Shown: positions 1,721 through 62,985 of the stretch, piece after piece
Numbering within the stretch: the stretch's first letter is position 1
Layout: the number at the start of each line of letters is the position of its first letter
NCBI GenBank assembly: GCA_951406725.2
Contig: OX597828.1
Span: forward strand, 51,212,001-51,276,000
Direction: 5' to 3'
Origin: Octopus vulgaris
Taxonomy: Eukaryota
Length of the DNA stretch: 64,000 nucleotides
Position numbers and translations under genes: made by a program
Notes under the pieces: model-generated
What the model was told of the DNA's origin: nothing
Databases searched by the model: none
Seen by the model: the letters and a program-made list of their open reading frames with translations, nothing else

Positions 1721-1945
1721 TACTTTATTAAAAGCAGCAGAAAATTCAACAAAACCTGTTACTCTGAGTTTCACATTGCCGTTCGTCGGACAGTTTTTAG
1801 CAAAAACTGTCCGACGAACGGCAACGTGAAACTCAGAGTAACAAGTTTTGTTGAATTTTCTGCTGCTTTAAATAAAGCATATTACTCTACCACTGGTATT
1901 GAGTACTCTGTTTTCCACCTTGTTTCACATTTATGTGTTTACTCC

Positions 1946-1948
<3 letters not shown>
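1721..1948 (+). mobile_element. (TA)n-flanked fold-back element with hammerhead motif (PLE-like family H1, copy 1)
   Basis: Near-perfect palindrome 1723-1877 (3-nt loop agc at 1799-1801) plus a unique 3' tail ending ttactccgg-(TA)n; homologous to 4376-4606 and 48826-48977. Confidence 0.85.
1803..1849 (+). ncRNA. Type I hammerhead ribozyme variant (U4C), mirrored on the minus strand
   Basis: aaaactgt-CCGACGA-acg/gcaa/cgt-GAAA-ctc/a/gag-TA-acaagtttt; stems I, II and III all pair; GUA cleavage triplet. Confidence 0.7.
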
Positions 1949-1996
<48 letters not shown>

Positions 1997-2000
<4 letters not shown>

Positions 2001-2975
2001 ACGTGTAGAGAAACGTATACTCAATACATTGACGAACTGAAAACACAGAAGGTCGACCAGAGAGTCAAGCGCAATTTCACCCATTATCAATAATATTGAT
2101 TCCACTCTGGAGGCACCGGCAAAAAACTTGCTGGGAATGGGACCAAAATATAACGAATCAATAAACAGAATGACGGCTTAGGGCCATTCAAAGACGACAA
2201 TTAAAATGATAATAATACATATACAGCCAAAAAAGCTTTAGAGCTGCAAGACAAAAATAGGTAACGTGAAGGAGAAATGATAAACTGTTTGAAAGGACAA
2301 TAAAAACGGGAGGGTTAGATCGAGGAGCTCAGAAATTCAGGACCAGTCCGATCGAAGGCATCGTAAAAAATAATGACACCGCCTTAGGCCGTCGCGGATC
2401 AGGGGATAGTGGGAGGAGGGTAAGAGAGAAAGACGGACAGCGAGGGAGAGAGAGGGAGAGAAAGGAAGGAAATTAAGATAAGCGAGGACCTCGTCTTTCT
2501 CTGTTACCATCCTCCTACTATCAGCCGATCCGCGACGGCCGAAGGCGGTGTCATTATTATTCGCGCTGCCTTCGACCGGACAGTTTACGATTTTCTGAGC
2601 TCCTCGCTCTAACCCTACCGTGTGTATAGTCATTTAGGACAGTTTTTCATTTCTCCTTCGCGTTACCCATTTTTGTCTAGTCTTACATTCCTAAAGCTTT
2701 TTTTTTTTGCTGTATATGTATTATTATTCTTATTTTAATTGTTGTCATCGTGTGGCCCTAAGCCTTTATTCTGTTTATTGTTTTGTCATGTTTTGTCTCA
2801 TTCCCGGCAAGTTTCTTGCCGGTGCCTCCAGACTGGGAGCAATATTATCGATAATGGCCGAAATTGCGCTTGATCTTCAGGCCGATACCTGAAGGGGATT
2901 TTGGTGACCTTCTGTGCTTTCCGTTCGTCTGTGTATTTAGTAAATGTTTGTATGTTTATTTTCTACACGTTTTAA
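1997..2975. mobile_element. (TA)n-flanked element with diverged inverted arms (1997-2290 / 2640-2975), family P
   Basis: Ends aaaacgtgtagagaaac ... ttttctacacgtttt; arms are alignable reverse complements around a ~350 bp spacer; carries GAGCAAT..GCCGAAATTGC..CTGAAG. Confidence 0.75.
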
Positions 2976-2993
2976 AAAAATTATATATATATA

Positions 2994-3200
2994 GAGGCGC
3001 AATGGCCTAGTGGTTAGGGCAGCGGACTCGCGGTCGCAGGATCGCGGTTTCGATTCTCAGACCGGGCGTTGTGTGTGTTTATTGAGCGAAAACACCTAAA
3101 AAGCTCTACGAGGCTCCGGCAGGGGGTGGTGATCCCTGCTGTACTCTTTCACCACAATGGCGGTGCCCCAGCATGGCCACAGCTCAAGAGCTGAAACTGG
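2994..3200 (+). mobile_element. tRNA-derived SINE family B (tRNA-Arg-like head, OR-type)
   Basis: gaggcgcaatggcctagtggttagggcagcggactcgcgg...ggtttcgattc with A/B-box-like motifs; homologous to 5125-5474, 31482-31775 and 55455-55750. Confidence 0.85.
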
Positions 3201-3229
3201 AAAAACAAAAAAACAAAAACAAAAAAAAA

Positions 3230-3269
<40 letters not shown>

Positions 3270-3337
3270 TATCTTCTGCTGTCCTTTTATTTAACCCTGA
3301 AAATATTATCAATGTAACACACGCATTCATTAATCTT

Positions 3338-3339
<2 letters not shown>

Positions 3340-3420
<81 letters not shown>

Positions 3421-3482
3421 GATAGATAGATAGATAGCTATTTATCTCTCTGTCTATCTATCTACCTGTCTCTCTCTCTCTC

Positions 3483-3576
<94 letters not shown>

Positions 3577-3620
3577 GTATGTATATATGTATGTATGTAT
3601 GTATCTATCTATATACATAC
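3340..3620. repeat. Compound (TATC)n/(GATA)n/(TA)n/(TATG)n microsatellite
   Basis: Direct reading; the (tatc)n tract flips to (gata)n at ~3420. Confidence 0.95.
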
Positions 3621-4157
3621 ATACACATGCGTGTGTTTGTGTGGGGACAGAACAATTGGATATAAAATATTGTACGCTTAAGAATCTAAAACCCGAAAAC
3701 GTAAAGAAGCCTAGAAAATGCAAAGAGGAAATATATAACAAATATCAGTAATTCACAGCAGTCTCATATATTCAAGACGGTAGGTTGATACACTTCGATT
3801 CATTCAATTAATAATTTCTACCTCTCTGAATGTTTCAAATCCTACGCGAAGAATAACACTGAAATTGCGAAACTATAGAAAATATATGGAATCATATCTC
3901 CATCATAGAAAATCTATGATAGATTTCTGTATGAAATGAAGAAACAGAGTACGGTAAGTACAATCATGATTTATATGGCTTTGACGTTGAGAAGCTCATT
4001 TCCCAAGTATGCATAATGCTTTTAACACTTTTAGTATTCTATGATTTTGTGTCTTTCAAAACCCTATCAATGACACTTAATGTGTTTATACATACATACA
4101 TACAGACATACATAAATATACACACATATATATGTGTGTGTATATATATATATATAT

Positions 4158-4357
4158 GTTGTCCTTACCTTCGGAACGCGAAGTAGATGAAACAGGGACA
4201 ACTGATGAAGGGGAATATTCTTTATGTTGCATGTCTCATTTCTCTGTTTCTTTTTTCGTTGATCCCCCAAAAAGTTCATTTTCTAAGTTTTTTTATTTTG
4301 TTTTCGTTTCCTATTGTGTTCAAAGGATTTTTGATGTCCTCTACCCATCTATGCATG
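4158..4357 (+). mobile_element. (TA)n-flanked short element with partial hammerhead-like motif
   Basis: Starts at gttgtcctt, whose ttgtcctt pairs 8/8 (one G-U) with agggacaa immediately before CTGATGA (4202-4208); (TA)n on both sides. Confidence 0.5.
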
Positions 4358-4375
4358 TATATATATATATATATA

Positions 4376-4603
4376 CCGGAGTAAACACATAAATGTGAAA
4401 CAAGGTGGAAAAAAGAGTACTCAAATACCAGTGGTAGAGTAATATGCTTTATTTAAAGCAGCAGAAAATTCAACAAAACCCGTTACTCTGAGTTTCCCGT
4501 TGCCGTTCATCGGAAAGTTTTTTCTAGCAAAAACTGTCCGATGAACGGCAACGGGAAACTCAGAGTAACAGGTTTTGTTGAATTTTCTGCTGCTTTAAAT
4601 AAA

Positions 4604-4606
<3 letters not shown>
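4376..4606 (-). mobile_element. Fold-back hammerhead element family H1, copy 2
   Basis: Tail ccggagtaaacac... then palindrome ~4446-4606; HHR aaaactgt-CCGATGA-acggcaacgg-GAAA-ctcagag-TA-acaggtttt at 4530-4576 and its mirror; (TA)n on both sides. Confidence 0.85.
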
Positions 4607-7756: not shown

Positions 7757-8085
7757 CCACTTGTTATGTCCCATTATTTGTATTTGTGTAACATTCTCCG
7801 TTTTATTCCGTCCTTGTTTTCGTATGCGTTCGGTGCTTTCTTCCAAGAAAATTAATGCTCTGAGATTAGTTTTTCCTTGGGGCTGGCTAGATAGGAGCAA
7901 TCATGAGTATAACCAGCCGAAATTGCAAAGATAATCTGAAACTCGACTGTGGATAGAAAACTCCAAATGACCCTTCCGTGTTTTCTTTGTATAGTATGTC
8001 TGGATGTGTTGTTGACCGTTTTTTGTATCACCTAACTGTCTGGATGTTTTGCGTTCTTGTCCCATTTTTGTATTTTTTATATATA
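7757..8085 (+). mobile_element. (TA)n-associated element, family P
   Basis: Direct repeat of ~8780-9040; contains ggctgg..GCAATC..ccagcc-GAAATTGC..actcga-CTGTGGA. Confidence 0.75.
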
Positions 8086-8093
8086 AAAAAAAT

Positions 8094-8327
8094 AAGGCGG
8101 CGAGCTGGCAGAATCGTTAGCACGCCGGGCGAAATTCTTAGCGGTATTTCGTCTGCCGCTTCGTTCTGAGTTCAAATTCCGCCGAGGTCGACTTTGCCTT
8201 TCATCCTTTCGGGGGTCGATAAATTAAGTACCAGTTACGCACTGGGGTCGATGCAATCGACTTAATACCTATGTCTGTCCTTGTTTGTCCCCTCTGTGTT
8301 TGGCCCCTTGTGGGTAGTAAAGAAATT
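8094..8327 (+). mobile_element. SINE family A, full-length
   Basis: aaggcggcgagctggcagaatcgttagcacgccgggcgaaa...gagttcaaattcc (B box)...core...gtagtaaagaaat. Confidence 0.93.
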
Positions 8328-8779
8328 GGTGTACGCTCTTTTTGGTCTCTTATATGTAAGTATATATTTATCTAAATTTTGTACGACTCTATTCTTTCTA
8401 TTCTTTCATTATTTCCTTCTTGCTATCAACCCTTTCCCGCTTACTTCGTTCATTCCACTCTCCGTTCATTTGTTCTCCCTCTCTCACATTTCCTGGTTTT
8501 CTCTTCATGCTCACTTTCCTTCGTCATTTAACTTCAATGTGTTCCTTTCATTTTCCCGCCCCTCCTTAATTCTCCTATCTCTCTGCCTCGACCTCTCTCT
8601 CTCTTCTCTCTCCACGTGACCGGTGTTCGGCCAAAACTTACCTTTCTTACTTGGTTCGACTACCATCTATATTTCTCCCTGCGCATGTGAAATCTTATGT
8701 CCTTGCCGTAAGGCGTTACATCCACATACGCCAGCTTAATTTAATTCGTCATTAATCGAAAGACACTTGTTGTTAATGT

Positions 8780-9040
8780 CTTGTTATTTGTATTTATGTA
8801 ACATTCTCCGCTTTATTACGTCCTAGTTTTCGTATACATTCGCTGCTTTCTTCGAAGAAATCTAATGCTCTTAGAATAGTTTTTCCTTGGGGCTGGCTAG
8901 ATAGGAGCAATCTCGAGTATAACCAGCCAAAATTGCAAAGACAATCTGGAACTCGATTGAGGATAAAAAACTCCGAATGAGCCATTCTTGTTTTCTTTGC
9001 ATCTTCTGTCTGTATGTTTTGTTCTCCCTTTTTTGTGTTT
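8780..9040 (+). mobile_element. Family P copy (3' end abuts (TA)n)
   Basis: Homologous to 7757-8085; tail-to-tail with 9085-9400 across a (TA)n tract. Confidence 0.75.
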
Positions 9041-9084: not shown

Positions 9085-9400
9085 AAAAGTAACAAAATAC
9101 ACAAACTGGGACAAGAACGTGAAACATTTAGAAGACGACACAAACAACACGGACGGGACTTTCGAAGCTCTCAGTCATCAGTCAAGAACCGTATCATCTT
9201 CGCAATTTCGGCTGATTAATCTTGAGATTGCTCCGATCTGGGCAGCCCCAAGGGAAATCTAAGCCAAGCGCATTAGATTCCTTGGAAGAAAGCCTCGAAA
9301 GTATACAACACAGGGACGGAAAACGGACGATGTTACACGAATAAAAATACAAAAATACGTAAAATCAATAATGATAGCACGAATAAGAATACAAAATACG
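9085..9400 (-). mobile_element. Family P diverged copy with intact permuted hammerhead core motifs
   Basis: Minus strand reads GCAATC-tcaaga..cagcc-GAAATTGC..tcttga-CTGATGA (9231-9175). Confidence 0.7.
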
Positions 9401-21742: not shown

Positions 21743-21981
21743 TCATCAACATAACCCATCTTCATCACATGAGGTAGTGTAATCGCTAATATATCAAATA
21801 TCATTGCAACAATGTAAATGCAAATTATTCGGTAATGGTTCGATGAGAGTTGAAACTGAGGTAAACTGAGATTTTCAATGCTTAACAGCAAATATCTAAT
21901 ACAGGAAGTTTAGTGAGACCAAAATTTGGTGGTGGTGGTGATGGGGGGGGTCATTCTAATAGGTTTAATTGATCAAAATAC

Positions 21982-22213
21982 CTATTTCTTTACTACCCAC
22001 AAGAGGCTAAACACAGAGAGGACAAACAAGGACAGACAAACGGGTTAAGTCGTTTATATCAACACCAGTGCGTAACTGGTACTTAATTTATCGACCCGGA
22101 AAGGACGAAAGGCAAAGTTGACCTCGGCGGAATGTGAACTCAGAACGTAACCGTAGACGAAATACCGCTAAGCATTTCGCCCGGCGTGCTAGCGTTTCTG
22201 CCAGCTCGTCGCC
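21982..22213 (-). mobile_element. SINE family A with 13-bp TSD
   Basis: ttgatcaaaatac at 21969-21981 and 22214-22226 flanks a full copy. Confidence 0.93.
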
Positions 22214-22286
22214 TTGATCAAAATACATTCTGTCGTGTTACTACACGATACCTTAGAAGTGGTACACTTACAAAAATCAAATTATA

Positions 22287-24550: not shown

Positions 24551-25387
<837 letters not shown>

Positions 25388-25402: not shown

Positions 25403-25646
25403 AAAGGCGAAGCTGACCCCAGCGGAATCTGAACTCAGAACGTAACACGTGTCCTATATTAATAGTTATAAAGTGCTTTGCTTTACTGATGACTAACAGT
25501 AACATATAATTATACAGAGTTCAAACAAGCATTTGTTAATATAGCTATAGTTTAGCAGAATTATATATGTGTGTGTTGATATATATTTATATGCATATAT
25601 GTAGATATCAATTATTTATACACACACACTCAAATATACATATTTG

Positions 25647-25714
<68 letters not shown>

Positions 25715-26470
25715 TAGACATGTGTGTGTGTGTGTGTGTGTGCGCGCGCGCGCGCGCGTGTGTGTGTGTATATAGATTTTTGTATTTTTCTTTTGTTAAC
25801 AATTAAGATGGAAACAATAGATAAATAGTTACCAGGGTAACAAAAATCACACCAAGTTAATAGGTTGTAACTCCTTGATGTTAAAGGTAGAAACTCTTGG
25901 TTTACGTGAAATATTTTGTATAATATATATAAATATATAAATGAAGTTAAACGTAGGTGTTATTCAAATATTAGCCAGTTGCTTAAGGAAAGTACTCTTT
26001 GGGCGAATGGTTTTATACTTCAGAGATGCGTCAATATTAAATAACTCCATATACTGTAACTATTTTGCTAGCATAATCTAAGGACACCTGGTTGAAGTAC
26101 ATATAAATAGATGTGATTATATTTACCTCTTTTTTCCGTGTTAATTGTTAACAGGGGACAAATACACACATCTATTTATATATAGTTCAACCAGATTTGA
26201 ATAACACCTGCGTTTAACTCCATTTATATATATGTATATTTGAGTGTGTGTGTATAAATAATCGATATCTACATATATGCATATAAATATATATCAACAC
26301 ACACATATATAATTCTGCTAAACTATAGCTATATTAACAAATGCTTGTTTGAACTCTGTATAATTATATGTTACTGTTAGTCAGCAGAAAAGCAAGGCAC
26401 TTAAAATCTATTAATATATGACACGTGTTACGTTCTGAGTTCAGATTCCGCCGAGGTCAACTTCGCCTTT
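25403..26470. repeat. Second inverted repeat pair 25403-25643 / 26230-26470
   Basis: Arms align as reverse complements with few mismatches; the first arm begins at the end of the preceding palindrome. Confidence 0.93.
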
Positions 26471-32725: not shown

Positions 32726-32779
32726 TGTCTGCCTCTCCCTCTATCTACCTCTCCCCCTCTCTCTTTCAGTCTGTCTTTT

Positions 32780-32847
<68 letters not shown>

Positions 32848-33140
32848 GACAAAACCACTATTTTGCAAAACAAACAAGGAAAGACTTAATCAATACATAA
32901 ACATTTTTAATATAAAGAAATAAACCGCCACTACAATCGTTTCATGTCTTCAATGACATTCGTCACGTGGATTTTCGATCTCCTAATTAAAACAGATTAG
33001 GAGATCGAAAATCCACGTGACGAATGTCATTGAAGACATGAAACGATTGTAGTGGCGGTTTATTTCTTTATATTAAAAATTTTTATGTATTGATTAAGTC
33101 TTTCCTTGTTTGTTTTGCAAAATAGTGGTTTTGTCTCGAA

Positions 33141-33203
<63 letters not shown>

Positions 33204-33276
33204 TTATATATATATAGAGAGAAAAAGACAGACTGAAAGAGAGAGGGGGAGAGGTAGATAGAGAGAGAGGCAGACA
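32726..33276. repeat. ~550 bp palindrome including a (TA)n-flanked element (32844-33139) and its host flank
   Basis: Inner arms near-perfect around an 8-nt loop (32988-32995); outer (CT)-rich and (AG)-rich flanks are also mirrored. Confidence 0.95.
33013..33055 (+). ncRNA. Minimal type I hammerhead (C3G), mirrored at 32928-32970 on the minus strand
   Basis: ccac-GTGACGA-atgtc/attgaa/gacat-GAAA-c/gatt/g-TA-gtgg. Confidence 0.7.
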
Positions 33277-36030: not shown

Positions 36031-36149
36031 ATTTAAAGAGTAATACTAAAATAGTTATGGTTTATCATGTCCGGAATGGTGTTATACGTACAGCTGAGGA
36101 GATGTAACAAAACTATTGCAAACTCCTATTCTGAAACAACTAAATATAT

Positions 36150-36995
<846 letters not shown>

Positions 36996-39703: not shown

Positions 39704-40383
39704 TCCTTTATACACAGATAGACAGATAGACAGATAGATATAGATAGATAGATAGATAGATACACATGCATCGATATATACGTAGATGCACACACGTAGA
39801 TAAATATTTTTTTATATATACATACATGCATACATCATATACATACACACACACACAGATATGTAAGCATTGTATGAATTCAGGGAATAAAAATATCAAG
39901 TATCTTTGTTAAATATATTTTGTTCTTCGTTGGACTCTAGAAACATCTGTTCTTTATATCGACATCTCACAATGGAATAGTGTAGATAAGTACAGAAATA
40001 TAATCGATATAAGCAAAATTGTAATACAGTTTTAATGTTGATTTAGGTAAATATTGATTGAAGGCCAGAGTATTATCGTTCACATGGTGTTTCGCAAAGA
40101 CTTTAAGATCTATAAATAGGAATATATGTGGTTTACATTTTAAAGAGAAATACGTGCGCTGTTCAAAGGGTTGAGATTGACAGGAAATCAGCGTTATAAT
40201 AAAATCATAACAACATTGATTTGGTCTAAAAGCTGCAGGGGTTCTTCATTGTTTATGAAGTGTTATAAAATATTAATGACATTTACTCTACGGAATGTGG
40301 TATGAGGATTCCCAGTTTGATGCCAGCGGGCGAGGAATACACAAGTCTGACTTCAAATTCCATTATCATTATCGTCATTGTTT

Positions 40384-40780
40384 AAGGCTTCCAGCTGGCA
40401 GAATCGTTAGCACGCCGGGCGAAGTGCGTAGCCGTATTTCGTCTGCCGTTACGTTCAGAGTTCAAATTCCGCCGAGGTCGACTTTGCCGTTCATCCTTTC
40501 GGCGTCGATTAAATAAGTACCAGTTACGCACTGGTGTCTATGTAATCCACTTAATCCGTTTGTCTGTCCTTGTTTGTCCTCTCTGTGTTTAGCCCCTTGT
40601 GGGTAGTAAAAAAATAGGTAATTCGTCTGTCTTTACATTCTGAGTTCAAATTCCGCCGAGGTCGACTTTGTCTTTCATCCTTTCTCGTCGATAAATTAAG
40701 TACCAGCGAAATATTGGGGTCGATCTAATCGATTTATCTTCACTATCAAAATTTCTGGCTTGTGTCTTTATTAGAAAAGA
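40384..40780 (+). mobile_element. SINE family A tandem copy
   Basis: Full copy, then a second core starting after aaataggta. Confidence 0.9.
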
Positions 40781-42119: not shown

Positions 42120-42830
42120 CATAGAAGTGGCTCAGCAAGGCTGACCTAAAAAAGAATACTGAAAGCATAATCATCGCTGTCTAGATATTAAATACCAACT
42201 CAGAGAAAACGGATATATACGACAGAATTCCACTGAACCTCTGCAGAATGTGTGGGAAGAGGGTCGAAAGTATGACTCATATTGTTAGTGCCTGTGAAAG
42301 TCTTACAGAGAAAGAGTACAAGCCCAGACACGACAAGGTAGCCCAAAACATTCACTGGTTACTATACAGGAAACATGGATACGAGGGAACAGGTGCTTGG
42401 TATCAACATACATCGGAAAAGCAATGGACGAAAAGTGGAAGGCAAAAATCCTCTGTAAATTTGACATCCAGACAGACAAAGTGTTAGAGCACTGAAGGCC
42501 GAATATACTAACGTTTAGGAGGGACAAACAAGAGGGCCTAATTATTGATGAGACAATCTCAGGAGTTCAACATATTATTATGAAAAGTAGAGAAAATATT
42601 GATAACTATAGACACCTGAGAATTGACATCGCTAAGACGTTAGAGCTACGTGAGTCAAACATTAAGGTTGTCCCTATTGTCATCGGAGCATTGAGTTCAA
42701 TACCACCAAACCTGAAAAACAAGGTATCTGGAAACTTTAGAAATACCCTACGATCTAGGTGTATTGCAAAATCGGTACTACTTGGAATCGCACGCATATT
42801 ACGTAAAGTACTATCTGTCTGAAGTATTTG
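42120..42830 (+). mobile_element. Decayed R4/Dong retrotransposon CCHC knuckle and restriction-like endonuclease
   Basis: CRMCGKRVESMTHIVSAC, RHDKVA..IHW, DIQTDK..RPNI, VVPIVIGAL, KSVLLGIARILRKVL; in-frame stops. The segment to ~43335 ending in (TAA)n may be its 3' UTR or a separate repeat. Confidence 0.9.
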
Positions 42831-48307: not shown

Positions 48308-48512
48308 ATAATACAAATAAGAAAATGGAGAAACAAATTTAGTTTGTTCATCAACTTATGGATATCGGAATGTTGGATTGGGTTATTCATTCAGATATAT
48401 ATGTACGTAATAGATGTTCTCATTTTGTTAAATGAATAAATTACCCAATCCAACATTCTAATATCCGAAAGTTGATGAACAAACAAAATTTGTTTCTACA
48501 TTTTCTTATTTG

Positions 48513-48518
<6 letters not shown>
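48308..48518. repeat. Inverted repeat (~85 bp arms) ending at (TA)n
   Basis: ataatacaaataagaaaatggagaaacaaattt... versus ...aaatttgtttctacattttcttatttgtattat. Confidence 0.85.
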
Positions 48519-48565
<47 letters not shown>

Positions 48566-48825
48566 TGAGTGTATTTTACCTTGTTAACAATTAACACGGA
48601 TAAATGAATGAATAGTTACCAGGGCAGCAAAATCTCACAAGTAAAGATGTTGTAACTCCTTGTTTATAAAGGTTGAAACTTCGTGTTTACGTTGAATATT
48701 TGAATAATAGGAATGAAAAATGGAGTCAACGCAGGTTTAAACAAGTATTTTTTCTTTCTACATATGTTTCAAAAATTCCACTGAAGGTATAAACAAAGCA
48801 GCAGAATTGTCATCTCGGTTCCATT

Positions 48826-48977
48826 TTAACAAAATTGTCCGACGAATGGGAACGTGAAACTCCAAGTAACAGATTTTGTTAAATTTCTGCTGCTTTTAAA
48901 TAAAGCATATTACTCTACCTCTGGTATTTGAGTGCTCTTTTTCCACCTTGTTTCACAATTATGTGTTTACTCCGGTA
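48826..48977 (+). mobile_element. Family H1 copy 3 (no intact inverted arm)
   Basis: tgtCCGACGAatgggaacgtGAAActccaagTAacaga plus the tail ending ttactccggtata. Confidence 0.8.
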
Positions 48978-49030
48978 TATAAATATATATATTTATATAT
49001 ATATTTATGTACAGGGTTAATACAATATAT

Positions 49031-49138
49031 ATAGAGGGCTTTATTTGAGTCTCACTTTTAAATAGATGATAATATGGACGATATATATCGTCCATATTAT
49101 CATCTATTTAAAAGTGAGGCTCAAATAAAGCCCTCTAT
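49031..49138. repeat. 108 bp near-perfect palindrome centred on atatatat
   Basis: atagagggctttatttgag...ggacg-atatatat-cgtcc...ctcaaataaagccctctat; one mismatch. Confidence 0.95.
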
Positions 49139-49898
49139 TAATCTAGTATGTGATTAATTTGCTTTTATGGTTGTTATATTTATACAATGTCCATTTGGCA
49201 TGAATACTCTTGCGAAAATATGGACCCCATTCTCCTTACTTGAACTAAATTAATATATTCAATATCTAAGCATGAGCAGAAATTTCACAATCAATATGAC
49301 ATCAGCATTGAATGTCCGTCACCTGTAAATAACTGCTCTGTATTTCAAAAATCACTTCAATGTAACAGCCAAGTATTAGTTAATGTCATAACATATAAAT
49401 GATGAAGCATAAAATACGTAGAGACAGTTGATATTTACATCGGTCTGACTAGTAGAGACGAGGGTCACGGTATCAACCTCATACATCAAGTGAGCCAACA
49501 ACCAGAAAGGTGTATGGAAGAGTGGTAGCAAGAAGACCCACCACCCAGAAGGAATCAACCATATGAGATGGCAGTGTAAAGTGTACAAATTCACGTGGGT
49601 CCTCCGTGATGACTACAACCGTATGGCTGAAACACAGAAAATAAGAGAAAAATAATTTACATACGGACACAAACAGGCACACACACATACACATAAAAGT
49701 TAATCAGAGGATATTTAACCTCTTAAAGTATGAGTACATCCAAGGAAAAACTTGTTCTAAACCTTATGTATTCGGGAAATAAAATCTCCTTAAATCAATA
49801 GGTATATATTAAGTATACAATCCGTGTAAAATTACGAGAAGAAAATGGAGAAAAATGAAGAGTGGTTAATATTTATTCATTTATAAATTGATAATCAT

Positions 49899-55750: not shown

Positions 55751-55829
55751 TCTTAAGGATAAGAAACAAAGATAAACTCTGTGGGATTTGAACACAGGAG
55801 TCGGTGATTTGAAACAGATACCGAGTACC

Positions 55830-56064
55830 TATTTCTTTACGACCTACAAGGGACTAAACACAGAGAGGACAAACAAGGACAGACGAACGGATTAAGTCGA
55901 TTATATCGACCCAGTGCGTAACTAGTACTTAATTTATCGACCCCGAAAGGATGAAAGGCAAAGTCGACCTCGGCGGAATTCGAACTCAGAACGTAGCAGC
56001 AGATGAAACAACGATAAGTATTTCGCCCGGCGTGCTAACGTTTCTGCCTGCTCGCCGCCTTAAT
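55830..56064 (-). mobile_element. SINE family A with 14-bp TSD
   Basis: agataccgagtacc at 55816-55829 and 56065-56078. Confidence 0.93.
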
Positions 56065-56896
56065 AGATACCGAGTACCATTCCTCCCGACGCCCCTAACC
56101 AAACTACTAATTCGCCATCTTGTATATAAGACAAAGAAAATTACTGGACATGAATATCTACTTTAACATATTAATCGTTTATTTGACACACCTTAATGTT
56201 GAGAATATATTTCTATACTAAAGTTAATTCATTTTTCTGTTTTTCGTTTTCAATAATTTCACCTTCACCATTTCTTAATGAAATTTTAATTTTGTTTACA
56301 CTGAATAATTCAGAACTATTTTGTTTTTAATCCATTTAATTAATAAATTTATTTATTTATTCTATTTAGAATTATTTGTTTCGCTATGTTTTCTTCTGGC
56401 TAGTTCAGCCATAGAACGCATAGATTTATAAAAAACGAAATCGAAATTGTGTAAGCAATGTTTTCAAATGTTAATTAGGGCAGAGTAAATATGCTAAATT
56501 TTATTTCATTAACTTTCATTTTTTCTATGAGCTTACATGGAACTTCACCCGTTTATTTCGTTTTTCAATATTAAAGCGTCTATTCCGTTATTACATTTTT
56601 ACACATTTTCACGAATATTTTCCGTATTTCATGAATATCTTATATTTTTTTATCACGTCCTATTCTTTCAAATAACGATTTTTCAGCGTAAGTCGATATT
56701 GAAAGAGACGAGCTAACTGAATTTAATTAAAGATACAAATGTATGAGTATTTACAAAATTACAATAATGATGTTTCTCTACTTTACTTAATATGCTCAGG
56801 TCAAGGCATAGAATGCAACTTGTAATACCAGCAGCGGAATCCGACAGTATCATGATGATTCTGTACCCCTTGAGCAACATCAAAATTCACTCAACC

Positions 56897-57129
56897 TATT
56901 TCTTTACTACCCACAAGGGGCTAAACATAGAGGGGACAAACAAGGACAGACATAGGTATTAAGTCGATTACATCGACCCCAGTGCGTAACTGGTACTTAA
57001 TTTATCGACCCCGAGAGGATGAAAGGCAAAGTCGACCTCGGCGGAATTTGAACTAACAACGTAACGGCAGCCGAAATACCGCTAAGCATTTCGCCCGACG
57101 TGCTAACGTTTCTGCCAGCTCGCCGCCTT
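56897..57129 (-). mobile_element. SINE family A with 12-bp TSD
   Basis: attcactcaacc at 56885-56896 and 57130-57141. Confidence 0.93.
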
Positions 57130-57139
57130 ATTCACTCAA

Positions 57140-57450
57140 CCGTCCACAAATACTCTCCAAGCTTTCCTATCATTTATAAACTCTCTTGCATCTTTCACTC
57201 CAACACCTCTAATTACCGAAGCTGTCCTCACTCCATCCGTCCATCCACACAAACCGAGGTCTGCCTCTGGTCCTGTTGCTTACCACCTCAGCATTCCTCA
57301 CCCTCCCTAAAATTTCCACACACATTTATCCCCTTTTCCCTTTACAATAGCACTGTACAGGCACTGCACCAGTCCTTTCGTACTCTTCCAGCCATATTAA
57401 CAATCATTCATAAGCCTCATTAACCGTTCAATCTCTGTCACACTCCTTTC
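57140..57450 (-). mobile_element. Internally deleted RTE-clade LINE fragment
   Basis: A DWCSA..KGKGDKCV segment (RT N-terminal region) is fused directly to the C-terminal RTRGRPRFVWMDG...DRKAWR motif. Confidence 0.7.
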
Positions 57451-57648
57451 TTTAGGCATTCCATGGTACACCTAATATAAAATTCCATATGTGGCGTATG
57501 TTTCTGTAATGCTGAACTTTACCTATACATGGTAGAAATATTAGATTACGTCGGTACACATTGAAATAGAATATTTCAAGGTTGTAGATATCTCAATTTA
57601 TTTAAGTCACAATGTGCTTGAAAACATTCTTTCATATTGGCTAATCGT

Positions 57649-58047
57649 AAGGCGGCAAGCTGGCAGAACGTTAGCACGTCGGGCGAAATGCTTAGCGGTA
57701 TTTCGCCTGCCGCTACGTTCAGAGTTCAAATTCCGCCGAGGTTGACTTTGCCTTTCACCCTTTCGGGGTCGATTATATAAGTACCAGTTGCGCACTGGGG
57801 GTCGATATAATCAACTTAATCCGTTTATCTGTCCTTGTTTGTCCTCTCTGTGTTTAGCCCCTTGTGGGTAGTAAAGAAATAGGTATTTCGCCTGCCGCTA
57901 CGTTCTGAGTTCAAATTTCCGCCGAGATCGACTTTGCCTTTCACCCTTTTGAGATCGATTAAATAAGTACCAGTTACGCACTGGGGTCGATGTAATCGAC
58001 TTAATCCCTTTGTCTGTCCTTGTTTGTCCCCTCTATGTTTAGCCCAT
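57649..58047 (+). mobile_element. SINE family A dimer
   Basis: Full copy, then aaataggtatttcgcctgccgctacg starts a second core plus tail. Confidence 0.92.
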
Positions 58048-59272
58048 TGTGGGCAACAAAAGAAATTAGAAAGAAGAAACGGAAGCTCACCGAGTAAAGG
58101 GCTTAAACGGCATTTCGGTTGTCTTTACGTTGTGAGTTCAAATTCCACCGAAGTCGATAAATGAAGTAACATTTGAGAACTGAGTTAGTGCAAAAGTTTG
58201 AAACCAATATTGAATAATTGTTATTAGATTCTCCTGCAAATTTCTACAATCTGGATGAATCAAGAAATTTAACTCGAAATTTCTGATATTCTGCCGCTAT
58301 ATATTAAACATAATCCGGTTTATCACAAGAATTAACGTAAATCTTTCTCTCTTCAGAGAAACAAAGATATATTATTCCTCGATTAGAAATAAGATTATAA
58401 AACCACTTTTAATTTTTGCATAAGATCAGGAATTTCGAGGAGGTGGGGGAGGGATGGACTGTTATTTTATCAACTTAGAAAGTATGAGGGGCAAAGATAA
58501 CAGCGACAGCATTTGAAATCAAAGGCGTAAAAAGCCTGAAAAAAATCAATAACATCTGATGCGTTAATGATTCATTCGCGTGCTTGATCAATATGGATGT
58601 ATCCACAGATTCATCACTGTCATCGTTGCATAAAGGAGCATGTGCGATTTAAAGTGACCAAATCTGAAAGGTTCTGACTGATCGAGTGATCGCTGATTTA
58701 TAACCATCATACTGAATATCTCTTGTTTACCGATAATACGGTCAGACGAACCCACGCTGTGATTGGATAGGCCCTTATGCCTTGATTGCCCGTTGTAATA
58801 GATTTGATGCCTTTCTTTGTAAATGAGAATCCAATCTCCAACACAAGTTACATACATTTTGGTATGTATTGCTCAATTTGCACAAAAGTAATATCACGGA
58901 AATTCTGAGGAAATCAATCAATTACGGGATAAAGAATTCATTTAAAAAATTCAGAACATATGAAGAATAATATTGCAAATGAAAAACCTAGCATAACACA
59001 GGGAATTTTTGGCAGCAGAACCAGAAGAGACAGAAGCAGCAGCAGTAGCCGTTCAAGAATGTGGACCTGGAGATCTCCATTTCCAGCGACTTCGCGGGCC
59101 ACCTCCCAGTAGTGTCGGGCGTCAATGAATATCCCTCGACTACAACGAGACGACCAAAGTTTTTTTTTTTCCCAAGGTCTGGGGTCTTCCGGCCCTAAGT
59201 CCGAGACCATCACCTAATCACCCTTACACCTCTTGCTGCTTAACAACAACAGAAGCAGCACCCCGACTTCCT

Positions 59273-61490: not shown

Positions 61491-62374
61491 CATTGCTCTG
61501 CATTACATCGTTGGTGTACATCTTGCCGTAGCACGGTTAAGAGTAACTAACTGTCCTACTGTAGCGATTTTAATTGTTGTAGTCTGTCACACAGAAACCG
61601 TTAGGTTCGCTTTAAGCAGTTATATTGATATTCATTCTAGTCCTTCTACAAGCTTCTTCTTCAGGTGAATGTTAGGTGCATTACGAAGAAACTGAAGCTA
61701 TGGAATGTCAAATACACTTCCTAGTTCCTTTTTGTTTTTAATGTTTGCGAGAGTCCTTTCCAGCATTCATCAATTTCCATTGATATCTATGTATTTCCCT
61801 TTGCTTCGTAACTTTTTCTTGATATTCTCTATAAAAATCCTTTGGTTTTTTTATTAAAATACTTTGTTTCTCTGGAAGAAGTTTGCATGCATTTTCGAAG
61901 CGGATTATTCTGCTTACTTTTCACTAATATAGTTTTTATTTTCACTACTGTGGTGTTTTCTTAATAGTCATTATTCTTTTTCAGAGATCTGGATTTCGTT
62001 TTTCCGCCTCTTCTTTGCTAAAATGATAAGTAAGAATAGGAAATATATTTTTCTTCCGACTATATTTAGTATATTGTTTTCCCATTATATTTACAGTCAA
62101 TATCGACTCTAATAGGATCAAAACCGATTTTGCTCAGTATTACAATTGCTGATGAATAGATTAAACCTTTCAGTTTGTTGATATCTTTGCAGTTTCTACT
62201 ATCGAATAAAATTGTTCCAATGGCCTATATATCTTTCTTTGTTCGTCGATCTATTTGTGTGTAGCAATAGCAGTTGTCTATTCTGCTTCACGTTTCATCG
62301 ACCATGTTATATTATCTTCTTGCGCTGCTTCATTTATTGTTTTTGTTTTGTCCCCTACAACATACTTTTCTTCT

Positions 62375-62985
62375 CGGCCGAATTTGAATTCAGAACATAA
62401 AGACAGACGAAATACCTATTTCTTTACTACCCACGAGGGGCTAAGCACAGAGAGGACAAACAAGGACAGACAAAGCGTTAAGTCGATTATATCGACCCCA
62501 GTGCGTAACTGGTACTTACTTAATCAACCCCGAAAGGGTGAAATGCAAAGTCGATCTCGGCGGAATTCGAACTCAGCGTTGCGACAGGTGAAATACCACT
62601 AAGCATTTAGCCTGGCGTGCTAACGACTATGCCAGCTCGCCGCATTTTGTTTCCCAAAATATTGTTTTCTACTCTAGGTACAACGCCCGAAATTTTGGGG
62701 GAGGGGACAGTCGACTTGCTCGACTCCAGTAGGCAACAGGTACTAAATTTATCGAACCAAAAATGATGAAAGGTAAAGTCGACCCCAGCGGAATTTGAAC
62801 TCAGAACGTAAAGACAGACGAAATACCTATTTCTTTACTACCCACAAGGGGCTAAACAAAGAGGAGACAAACAAGGACAGACAAATGGATTAAGCCGATT
62901 ATATCGACCCCCAGTACGTAACTGGTACTTATATAATCGACCCCGAAAGATGAAAGGCAAAATCGACCTCGGCGGAATTTGAACG
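62375..62985 (-). mobile_element. SINE family A multimer (three to four partial units)
   Basis: Repeated gaaatacctatttctttactacccac junctions. Confidence 0.88.

Follow-up and report, generated by a model that had tools for sequence, protein, structure and literature searches.

Inverted pseudo-long terminal repeats (pLTRs) have been described for several Penelope-like elements. In Pen2, Pen2a and Pen3a of Adineta vaga, an inverted pLTR overlaps the direct one and a tail is present on one side; palindromes of 18 and 38 bp at the pLTR 5' end were best interpreted as self-priming (PMC3846280, published in 2013). PMC8557442 gives the same pLTR layout, notes that some clades are biased towards (TA)n and that the tail usually measures 30-40 bp, and describes the cycle as undefined. 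In Poseidon of Anolis carolinensis, studied in vitro, the tail ends are start sites of reverse transcription and both target strands are nicked and extended; the protein is modelled as a dimer, with two start sites defining the tail (PMC11167929). Here we describe H1, a repeat found as two fold-backs and one single-arm copy in 64,000 nucleotides of Octopus vulgaris DNA (GenBank assembly GCA_951406725.2, contig OX597828.1, positions 51,212,001 to 51,276,000, forward strand; hereafter the window). The two arms of one fold-back were most likely copied from a single template, and the mirror arm may be made at insertion by snap-back of the complementary DNA (cDNA). The structure itself is not new, since both the layout and fold-back priming (2013) have been published.

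Anatomy and assignment of H1

A BLAST search with both fold-backs against the window, which is microsatellite-rich eukaryotic DNA, recovered the three H1 loci on which the H1 results below are based (Table 1). Copy 2 is opposite in orientation to copy 1 and 93.6% identical to it, and copy 3 is 89% identical. A motif search recovered five H1 arms exactly; two extra matches with 2 mismatches are compatible with chance. The palindrome of copy 1 (1723-1877) is 94% self-complementary and that of copy 2 (4447-4604) is 96% self-complementary. Each fold-back has two 75-bp arms and a tail of 70-71 nt on a single arm, with equal tail limits in both copies and the tails on opposite sides. In both copies the short arm stops at AATAAAG|TA, which is the position at which the long arm passes into the tail, and all three H1 tails end CCGG|TATA; the two ends of the fold-backs have the junction G|TATA in common. 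The identical palindrome limits reported in the preliminary description are therefore confirmed. Copies 1 and 2 are bordered by (TA)n on either side and copy 3 next to its tail, and this microsatellite masks any target-site duplication. The flanks of copies 1 and 2 gave only weak, gapped, AT-rich alignments without convincing homology, indicating that the two copies are separate insertions; an origin of copy 2 by local duplication of copy 1 was rejected. An old, large inverted element lies between them (2011-2949; arms 2065-2435 and 2492-2873, 82% identical, with A and TA runs at its bounds). Overall, the masked window contains six self-overlapping fold-backs, compared to none in each of 10 shuffles.

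Table 1. Coordinates of the H1 copies and related features in the window.
Feature	Position	Strand	Description
Copy 1 short (inverted) arm	1723..1798	-	hammerhead sense on minus strand; ends AATAAAG at (TA)n
Copy 1 centre	1794..1806		T5-AGC-A5 micro-hairpin, 3-nt loop 1799-1801
Copy 1 long arm	1802..1877	+	stem I, core CCGACGA 1811-1817, 3-bp stem II, GAAA 1828-1831, quasi-palindromic helix III, GUA site 1838-1840, AATAAA
Copy 1 unique tail	1878..1947	+	70 nt; ends CCGG at (TA)24
Copy 2 unique tail	4376..4446	-	71 nt; ends CCGG at (TA)n
Copy 2 long arm	4447..4522	-	hammerhead sense on minus strand; derived T 4509, G 4497
Copy 2 centre	4523..4528		plus-strand TCTAGC, one substitution away from a loop-less GCTAGC palindrome
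Copy 2 short (inverted) arm	4529..4604	+	core CCGATGA 4538-4544; derived T 4542, G 4554; ends AATAAAG at (TA)n
Truncated family F copy	26088..26194		5' junction is inverted copy of own end, TA run and ~8 nt of flank
Second hammerhead family, folded back	32726..33276 (fold-back 32845-33138)		mirror passes through (TA)n and ~60 nt of host flank
Family F copy, head-to-head with copy 3	48564..48817	-	partial hammerhead-like motif near 48759-48817; boundary approximate
Copy 3	48824..48975	+	single H1 arm and tail; outgroup for shared sites; T4-AAC-A4 at fold-centre position

Judged by its anatomy, H1 is probably a non-coding remnant of a Penelope-like pLTR. It combines a hammerhead motif, a head-to-head inverted copy (in two of the three copies), a one-sided fixed tail and insertion in (TA)n. 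As in the Adineta pLTRs, for which self-priming was proposed, the inverted repeat overlaps the direct one head-to-head, a palindrome is present at the junction, one arm bears the tail, and the target is AT-rich or a microsatellite (PMC3846280; PMC8557442, Fig. 2). H1 differs in lacking an open reading frame (ORF), in having a 70-nt tail instead of 30-40 bp, and in that no target duplication can be read; arm-shared mutations are not reported in the passages on Adineta pLTRs. Poseidon, in which both strands are nicked and extended, shares an AT-rich target and fixed tail ends with H1. The Poseidon ORF begins at hammerhead stem II, whereas H1 has no recognisable ORF start, and the available text of PMC11167929 does not address inverted products. 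Inverted pLTRs are known for Penelope-like elements, as the preliminary description stated (PMC3846280, PMC8557442). The programmed hairpin step that it saw suggested by fixed breakpoints with flip/flop is not needed to explain the fixed limits, because a fixed tail boundary and junction palindromes are published Penelope features (PMC3846280, PMC11167929).

H1 is not filed as an autonomous Penelope-like element, because the H1 copies contain no long ORF and a Pfam scan of 150 of the 233 filtered stop-to-stop frames of the window revealed no reverse transcriptase or GIY-YIG domain, with two weak matches below the cut-off. Two other assignments were rejected. A miniature inverted-repeat element or other TA-targeting DNA transposon does not fit, since the left end is unrelated to the reverse-complemented right end and terminal inverted repeats are therefore lacking. 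Retrozymes are built of tandem units that are arranged head to tail and each carry a type I hammerhead (PMC7229834; bioRxiv 10.64898/2026.07.22.740005), and no tandem H1 units occur in the window, which excludes a metazoan non-LTR retrozyme.

Searches for H1 elsewhere were negative. Translated-frame searches outside the window gave no candidate at 41-132 aa, and none of 8 candidates was significant at longer lengths. A HMMER search of representatives returned two unnamed matches at 32% and 37% identity, too distant for H1 translations, and exact-pattern scans of bacterial and archaeal genomes returned no match. No literature on the H1 family or on arm-shared mutations in inverted pLTRs was found in a search whose coverage excluded most subscription papers. 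A 15-nt H1 motif also had no literature match; H1 may already be listed in repeat libraries (Repbase, Dfam and the O. vulgaris library), which lay outside that search. An annotation of octopus repeats from 2026 contains 190 Penelope-like families (PMC13282606).

Arm-shared changes and possible snap-back synthesis

Seven of 75 columns vary among the four fold-back arms. In two of them the change is common to both arms of one copy, in five it is confined to a single arm (three and two in the two copies, including a stem I mismatch at 1844 in the copy 1 long arm), and none sorts by side. Both arms of copy 1 read ccgaCga...gTgaaac (1815 and 1827, mirrored at 1785 and 1773) and both arms of copy 2 read ccgaTga...gGgaaac (4542 and 4554, mirrored at 4509 and 4497), exactly as the preliminary description had stated. 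Copy 3, absent from the preliminary description, agrees with copy 1 at both positions, so that the derived state is confined to copy 2. The further claim that arms pair by copy is upheld by the column counts, but it depends on derived changes in copy 2 only, one of which is a C-to-T transition in a CpG. Two other CpG transitions are found in the H1 family, in the copy 1 short arm and in copy 3. When nine independent changes were simulated on four arms (150,000 runs per CpG-rate setting), the probability of at least two shared changes was 0.0009, 0.005, 0.017 and 0.043 at CpG rates of 1x, 5x, 10x and 20x, respectively. On this sequence evidence, the arms of copy 2 were most likely copied from one template after the split from the copy 1 lineage; copying at insertion and later copying both appear compatible with the data. 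RNA editing was rejected as the source of the changes: none of the two shared changes and one of six single-arm changes (element strand, including the copy 2 centre) is A-to-G.

There is about an even chance that the mirror arm was made at insertion by cDNA snap-back at a T4-AGC-A4 micro-hairpin. An element-encoded endonuclease would nick (TA)n, and reverse transcription would start at the fixed tail end, where the CCGG|TATA junction is seen in every tail. The cDNA would stop, or be trimmed, just past stem I of the hammerhead, at a T4-AGC-A4 micro inverted repeat in the template; this repeat is seen in the sequence, and copy 3 suggests that it is native to the element. The cDNA 3' end would then fold back and extend on itself, which would place template variants in both arms, as seen for the derived shared changes of copy 2. 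The new arm would be joined to (TA)n at the tail boundary, which is observed and would represent a second fixed site of the element. A fold register that varies by a few bases would yield differing centres, and later point mutations would drive the arms apart. When the copy 1 minus strand was folded as DNA at T5-GCT-A4 (3-nt loop) and then extended, the copy 1 centre was reproduced exactly. The anatomy, comprising a palindromic helix III in a minimal hammerhead, a head-to-head inverted arm, a one-sided tail and a (TA)n target as in Penelope-like elements, is consistent with snap-back, and the two derived arm-shared changes, with none by side, also count for it (P 0.001-0.04).

Snap-back of cDNA has been described at 5' junctions formed by the R2 protein (PMC11371274). 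In those junctions the cDNA 3' end self-primes before the 5' junction, leaving antisense sequence next to target DNA, as proposed for H1. The R2 junctions differ from H1 in that they belong to another retroelement class, derive from engineered insertions, have variable fold positions and lack a second fixed end (PMC11371274).

Two neighbouring elements mirror host flank, which supports fold-back synthesis at the level of the locus. The second hammerhead family is folded back at 32845-33138, and where its mirror extends over the TA run and ~60 nt of host flank there is one mismatch; its right side is probably the copy, because on the left the sequence continues as a compound microsatellite. The inverted junction of the truncated family F copy matches in 32 of 37 columns, and the switch occurs at TATTT. 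Both look like R2 snap-back junctions. The earlier proposal that the inverted arm is re-synthesised from one template at each insertion is therefore supported in part, by the derived shared changes of copy 2 and by these neighbours. The words "at each insertion" go too far, as there is one informative locus and one later template switch in copy 2 also explains both the shared changes and its longer centre.

Several observations weigh against snap-back. Derived shared changes are found at one locus only, and one of the two is the CpG transition. Simple intramolecular snap-back would not produce the loop-less GCTAGC of copy 2, which would call for an extra base, another cDNA or template switching at a later stage. 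The common stop of the short arms would be unexplained by snap-back alone and would have to come from the tail mechanism; the supporting loci ran into flank. The tail of copy 2 has no clear derived substitution, where about three are expected if its template had diverged (a weak point based on simple arithmetic). The self-priming described in PMC3846280 concerned antisense RNA, not necessarily cDNA snap-back, and the Pfam scan provided no reverse transcriptase or GIY-YIG domain for the element. Finally, generic repair or replication may be able to make mirrors in the window, as at 24551-25387 and 25403-26470, which have no clear central element.

A somewhat unlikely alternative is that a palindromic master was retrotransposed whole, with inherited limits, and that a later template switch or conversion in copy 2 recopied one arm. 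Quasi-palindrome correction by template switching is an established process. A single event of this type would take in both mutations and the three extra centre bases (GCT+AGC) and thus cover both oddities of copy 2, whose two arm-shared sites are 12 nt apart and adjoin the centre. Copy 1 has no derived shared change, the identical limits come free, and element-independent inverted duplications are present nearby. However, five single-arm differences remain, so conversion would have to be infrequent. An ageing master is also expected to leave side-specific differences common to both copies, and none was found (0 of 75 columns, two copies). RNA that spans an entire fold-back folds into a hairpin (-126 to -138 kcal/mol) in which the hammerhead is buried, and the mirrored host flank at two elements in the window is not easily explained by inheritance.

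It is very improbable that the fold-backs are an assembly or library artefact, from fold-back reads or from polishing that homogenised the arms. Palindromes inside microsatellites are hard to assemble, and the same is stated of Penelope-like insertions (PMC8557442). Yet the arms of the two copies keep their single-arm differences and the centres are imperfect, two unrelated loci have their limits at identical bases of the element, and older fold-backs with 68-92% arm identity are found in the same window.

The fold centre and the joining of the arms

In element orientation, the centre of copy 1 is CAG-T5-AGC-A5-CTG (19 nt) and that of copy 2 is CAG-T5-GCTAGA-A5-CTT (22 nt). The loop had been described as tagc on the plus strand of both copies, and the copies as flip/flop isomers. 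The plus-strand reading is correct, but the isomers are rejected: they need equal-length, reverse-complement loops (T5-GCT-A5), and in the two copies the centres differ in length. The copy 1 centre is 4 edits from copy 2 when flipped and 5 when unflipped, and by edit count alone a flip plus a 3-nt insertion may be compatible. The right half of the copy 2 centre mirrors its left half except at two positions, both of which belong to the long arm. On the simplest reading, the copy 2 short arm would have copied three more bases to give the loop-less GCTAGC. This palindrome carries TAGC on both strands, and the long arm starts T-A-G in both copies. Flip/flop hairpin termini are known from parvoviruses and poxviruses. 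Like H1, they are palindromes with a small asymmetric centre; unlike H1, which is an internal genomic insertion with centres that differ by 3 nt, they have loops of equal length.

Priming at both target strands would also produce inverted arms, although we consider it unlikely. Both (TA)n strands would be nicked, with one priming at the tail end and the other at the fixed AATAAAG site on the same or a sister RNA, and the cDNA ends would anneal head-to-head via T4/A4 (copy 1 type) or TA (copy 2 type). The G|TATA junction at both ends fits this scheme, and annealing via TA gives the copy 2 centre directly. The Poseidon protein, modelled as a dimer, provides a precedent, with nicking and extension of both strands and two start sites (PMC11167929). 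Twin priming is the sole model that predicts true flip/flop isomers. However, it requires both cDNAs to come from one source locus in order to explain the arm-shared mutations, the H1 tail is 70 nt rather than the usual 30-40 bp, and twin priming cannot yield the mirrored host flanks at 32726-33276 and 26088-26194.

The locus of copy 3 has also been counted for twin priming, as copy 3 lies head-to-head with a member of a different family, F, between two TA runs, as expected from two RNAs. There is no (TA)n between the two elements, and TA runs are present on both outer sides. The 3' half of family F resembles a hammerhead, with a palindromic helix III and a 9-10 bp stem II but without an intact core, and one terminus adjoining TA-rich DNA is common to all three F copies. 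The block at 48564-48975 is possibly a two-family chimera; it may also stem from two insertions that a deletion brought together, or represent one composite element or a decayed fold-back. With regard to the last of these, a 12-nt self-arm match in copy 3 was reached in 6 of 5000 shuffles and the remainder in 3236 of 5000.

A more specific scheme, doubtful at present, is a two-primer Penelope-type integration with a built-in joint, in which both target strands act as primers at two fixed sites and the cDNA ends anneal via the native micro-palindrome next to the hammerhead. If true, it would fix both limits, give arms that share the mutations of their source, allow centres of the AGC, flipped GCT and loop-less GCTAGC types, and occasionally generate two-family chimeras such as 48564-48975. 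H1 would then document, at the level of the genome, the second-strand step of these elements, which is still unsolved.

The hammerhead motif, other repeats and implications

Each H1 arm carries a putative minimal type I hammerhead: stem I, core CCGA(C/T)GA, a 3-bp stem II, GAAA, a quasi-palindromic helix III region and a GUA site. The core corresponds to the U4C variant, a known weak natural variant that is reported to have considerably lowered activity in vitro (PMC3088659). Rfam gave no hammerhead match to H1 at the gathering score or at E values up to 10, and microRNA-type matches below the gathering score reflect only the hairpin. A minimal hammerhead descriptor that allows one core change passed the copy 1 short arm, copy 3 and both arms of the second hammerhead family, compared to 0-1 matches in each of 12 shuffles. 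The other three fold-back arms of H1 each fail through single changes; the T-to-G change of copy 2 disrupts the closing pair of stem II. In free folding of single arms, the ribozyme form was not clearly favoured (z -0.7 to 1.4). The hammerheads described earlier on both strands are thus present as a motif in each arm, but their occurrence on both strands is automatic because the arms form a palindrome, and one of four arms passes the descriptor. Both arms of the second hammerhead family (32726-33276) have G at core position 3, possibly an arm-shared change, for which the window contains no outgroup.

Minimal type I hammerheads have been described in the pLTRs of metazoan Penelope-like elements, where opposite-strand pairs lie 100-700 bp apart (PMC4209133). 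H1 shares with them the type I layout, the GUA site, a one-pair helix III and a palindromic loop suited to dimers. H1 differs in its U4C core and in stem II, which has 3 bp and a closing pair of A-U (A-G in copy 2) rather than G10.1-C11.1; H1 lacks the extra base between positions 9 and 10.1, and its two motifs are only ~20-25 nt apart (PMC4209133).

The window contains further inverted repeats. At 24551-25387, 297-bp arms that are 97% identical surround a bare TA run in which the internal variants are mirrored as well, with a 17-bp tandem duplication at the right end. An inverted duplication of 231 bp (25403-25633 and 26240-26470, 95%) lies inside a rearranged 2-kb block. Two fold-backs are found beside copy 3, at 48311-48515 (80%) and 49020-49149 (92%; centre ATATAT, ends near AATAAA). 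In another family (7761-8026, 8770-9036 and 9138-9349), the inverted neighbour is 78% identical to its partner and the direct copies are 86% identical to each other, indicating no arm-sharing.

An abundant family resembling short interspersed nuclear elements occurs at 1003-1332, 8088-8330, 21976-22215, 36141-36831, 40378-40778, 55826-58066 and 62372-62984; its members are 80-94% identical, have an internally repeated unit of ~185 nt and often form close inverted pairs. Two frames at 42185-42822 contain zinc-knuckle-like and restriction-like-endonuclease-like motifs. We take this region to recall the end of an R4/Dong-type long interspersed nuclear element, a label left unconfirmed by Pfam, which matched nothing in these frames, and by a homologue search with frame 42496-42819, in which none of 173 candidates was significant.

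The formation of Penelope-like inverted repeats is described as undefined (PMC8557442, PMC11167929). H1 is a structure of a known kind and its flip/flop interpretation fails; its value lies in allowing an open mechanism to be tested from sequence. Snap-back, twin priming and later conversion can be told apart by three read-outs, namely arm-shared mutations, the type of centre and mirrored flank. Extrapolating from three H1 copies and six fold-backs in 64 kb, the octopus genome probably holds enough loci for a statistical test. Octopus is reported to have a high load of double-stranded RNA and hyper-editing (PMC5625713). Near-perfect hairpins such as those of H1 are ready-made double-stranded RNA and may add to this load.

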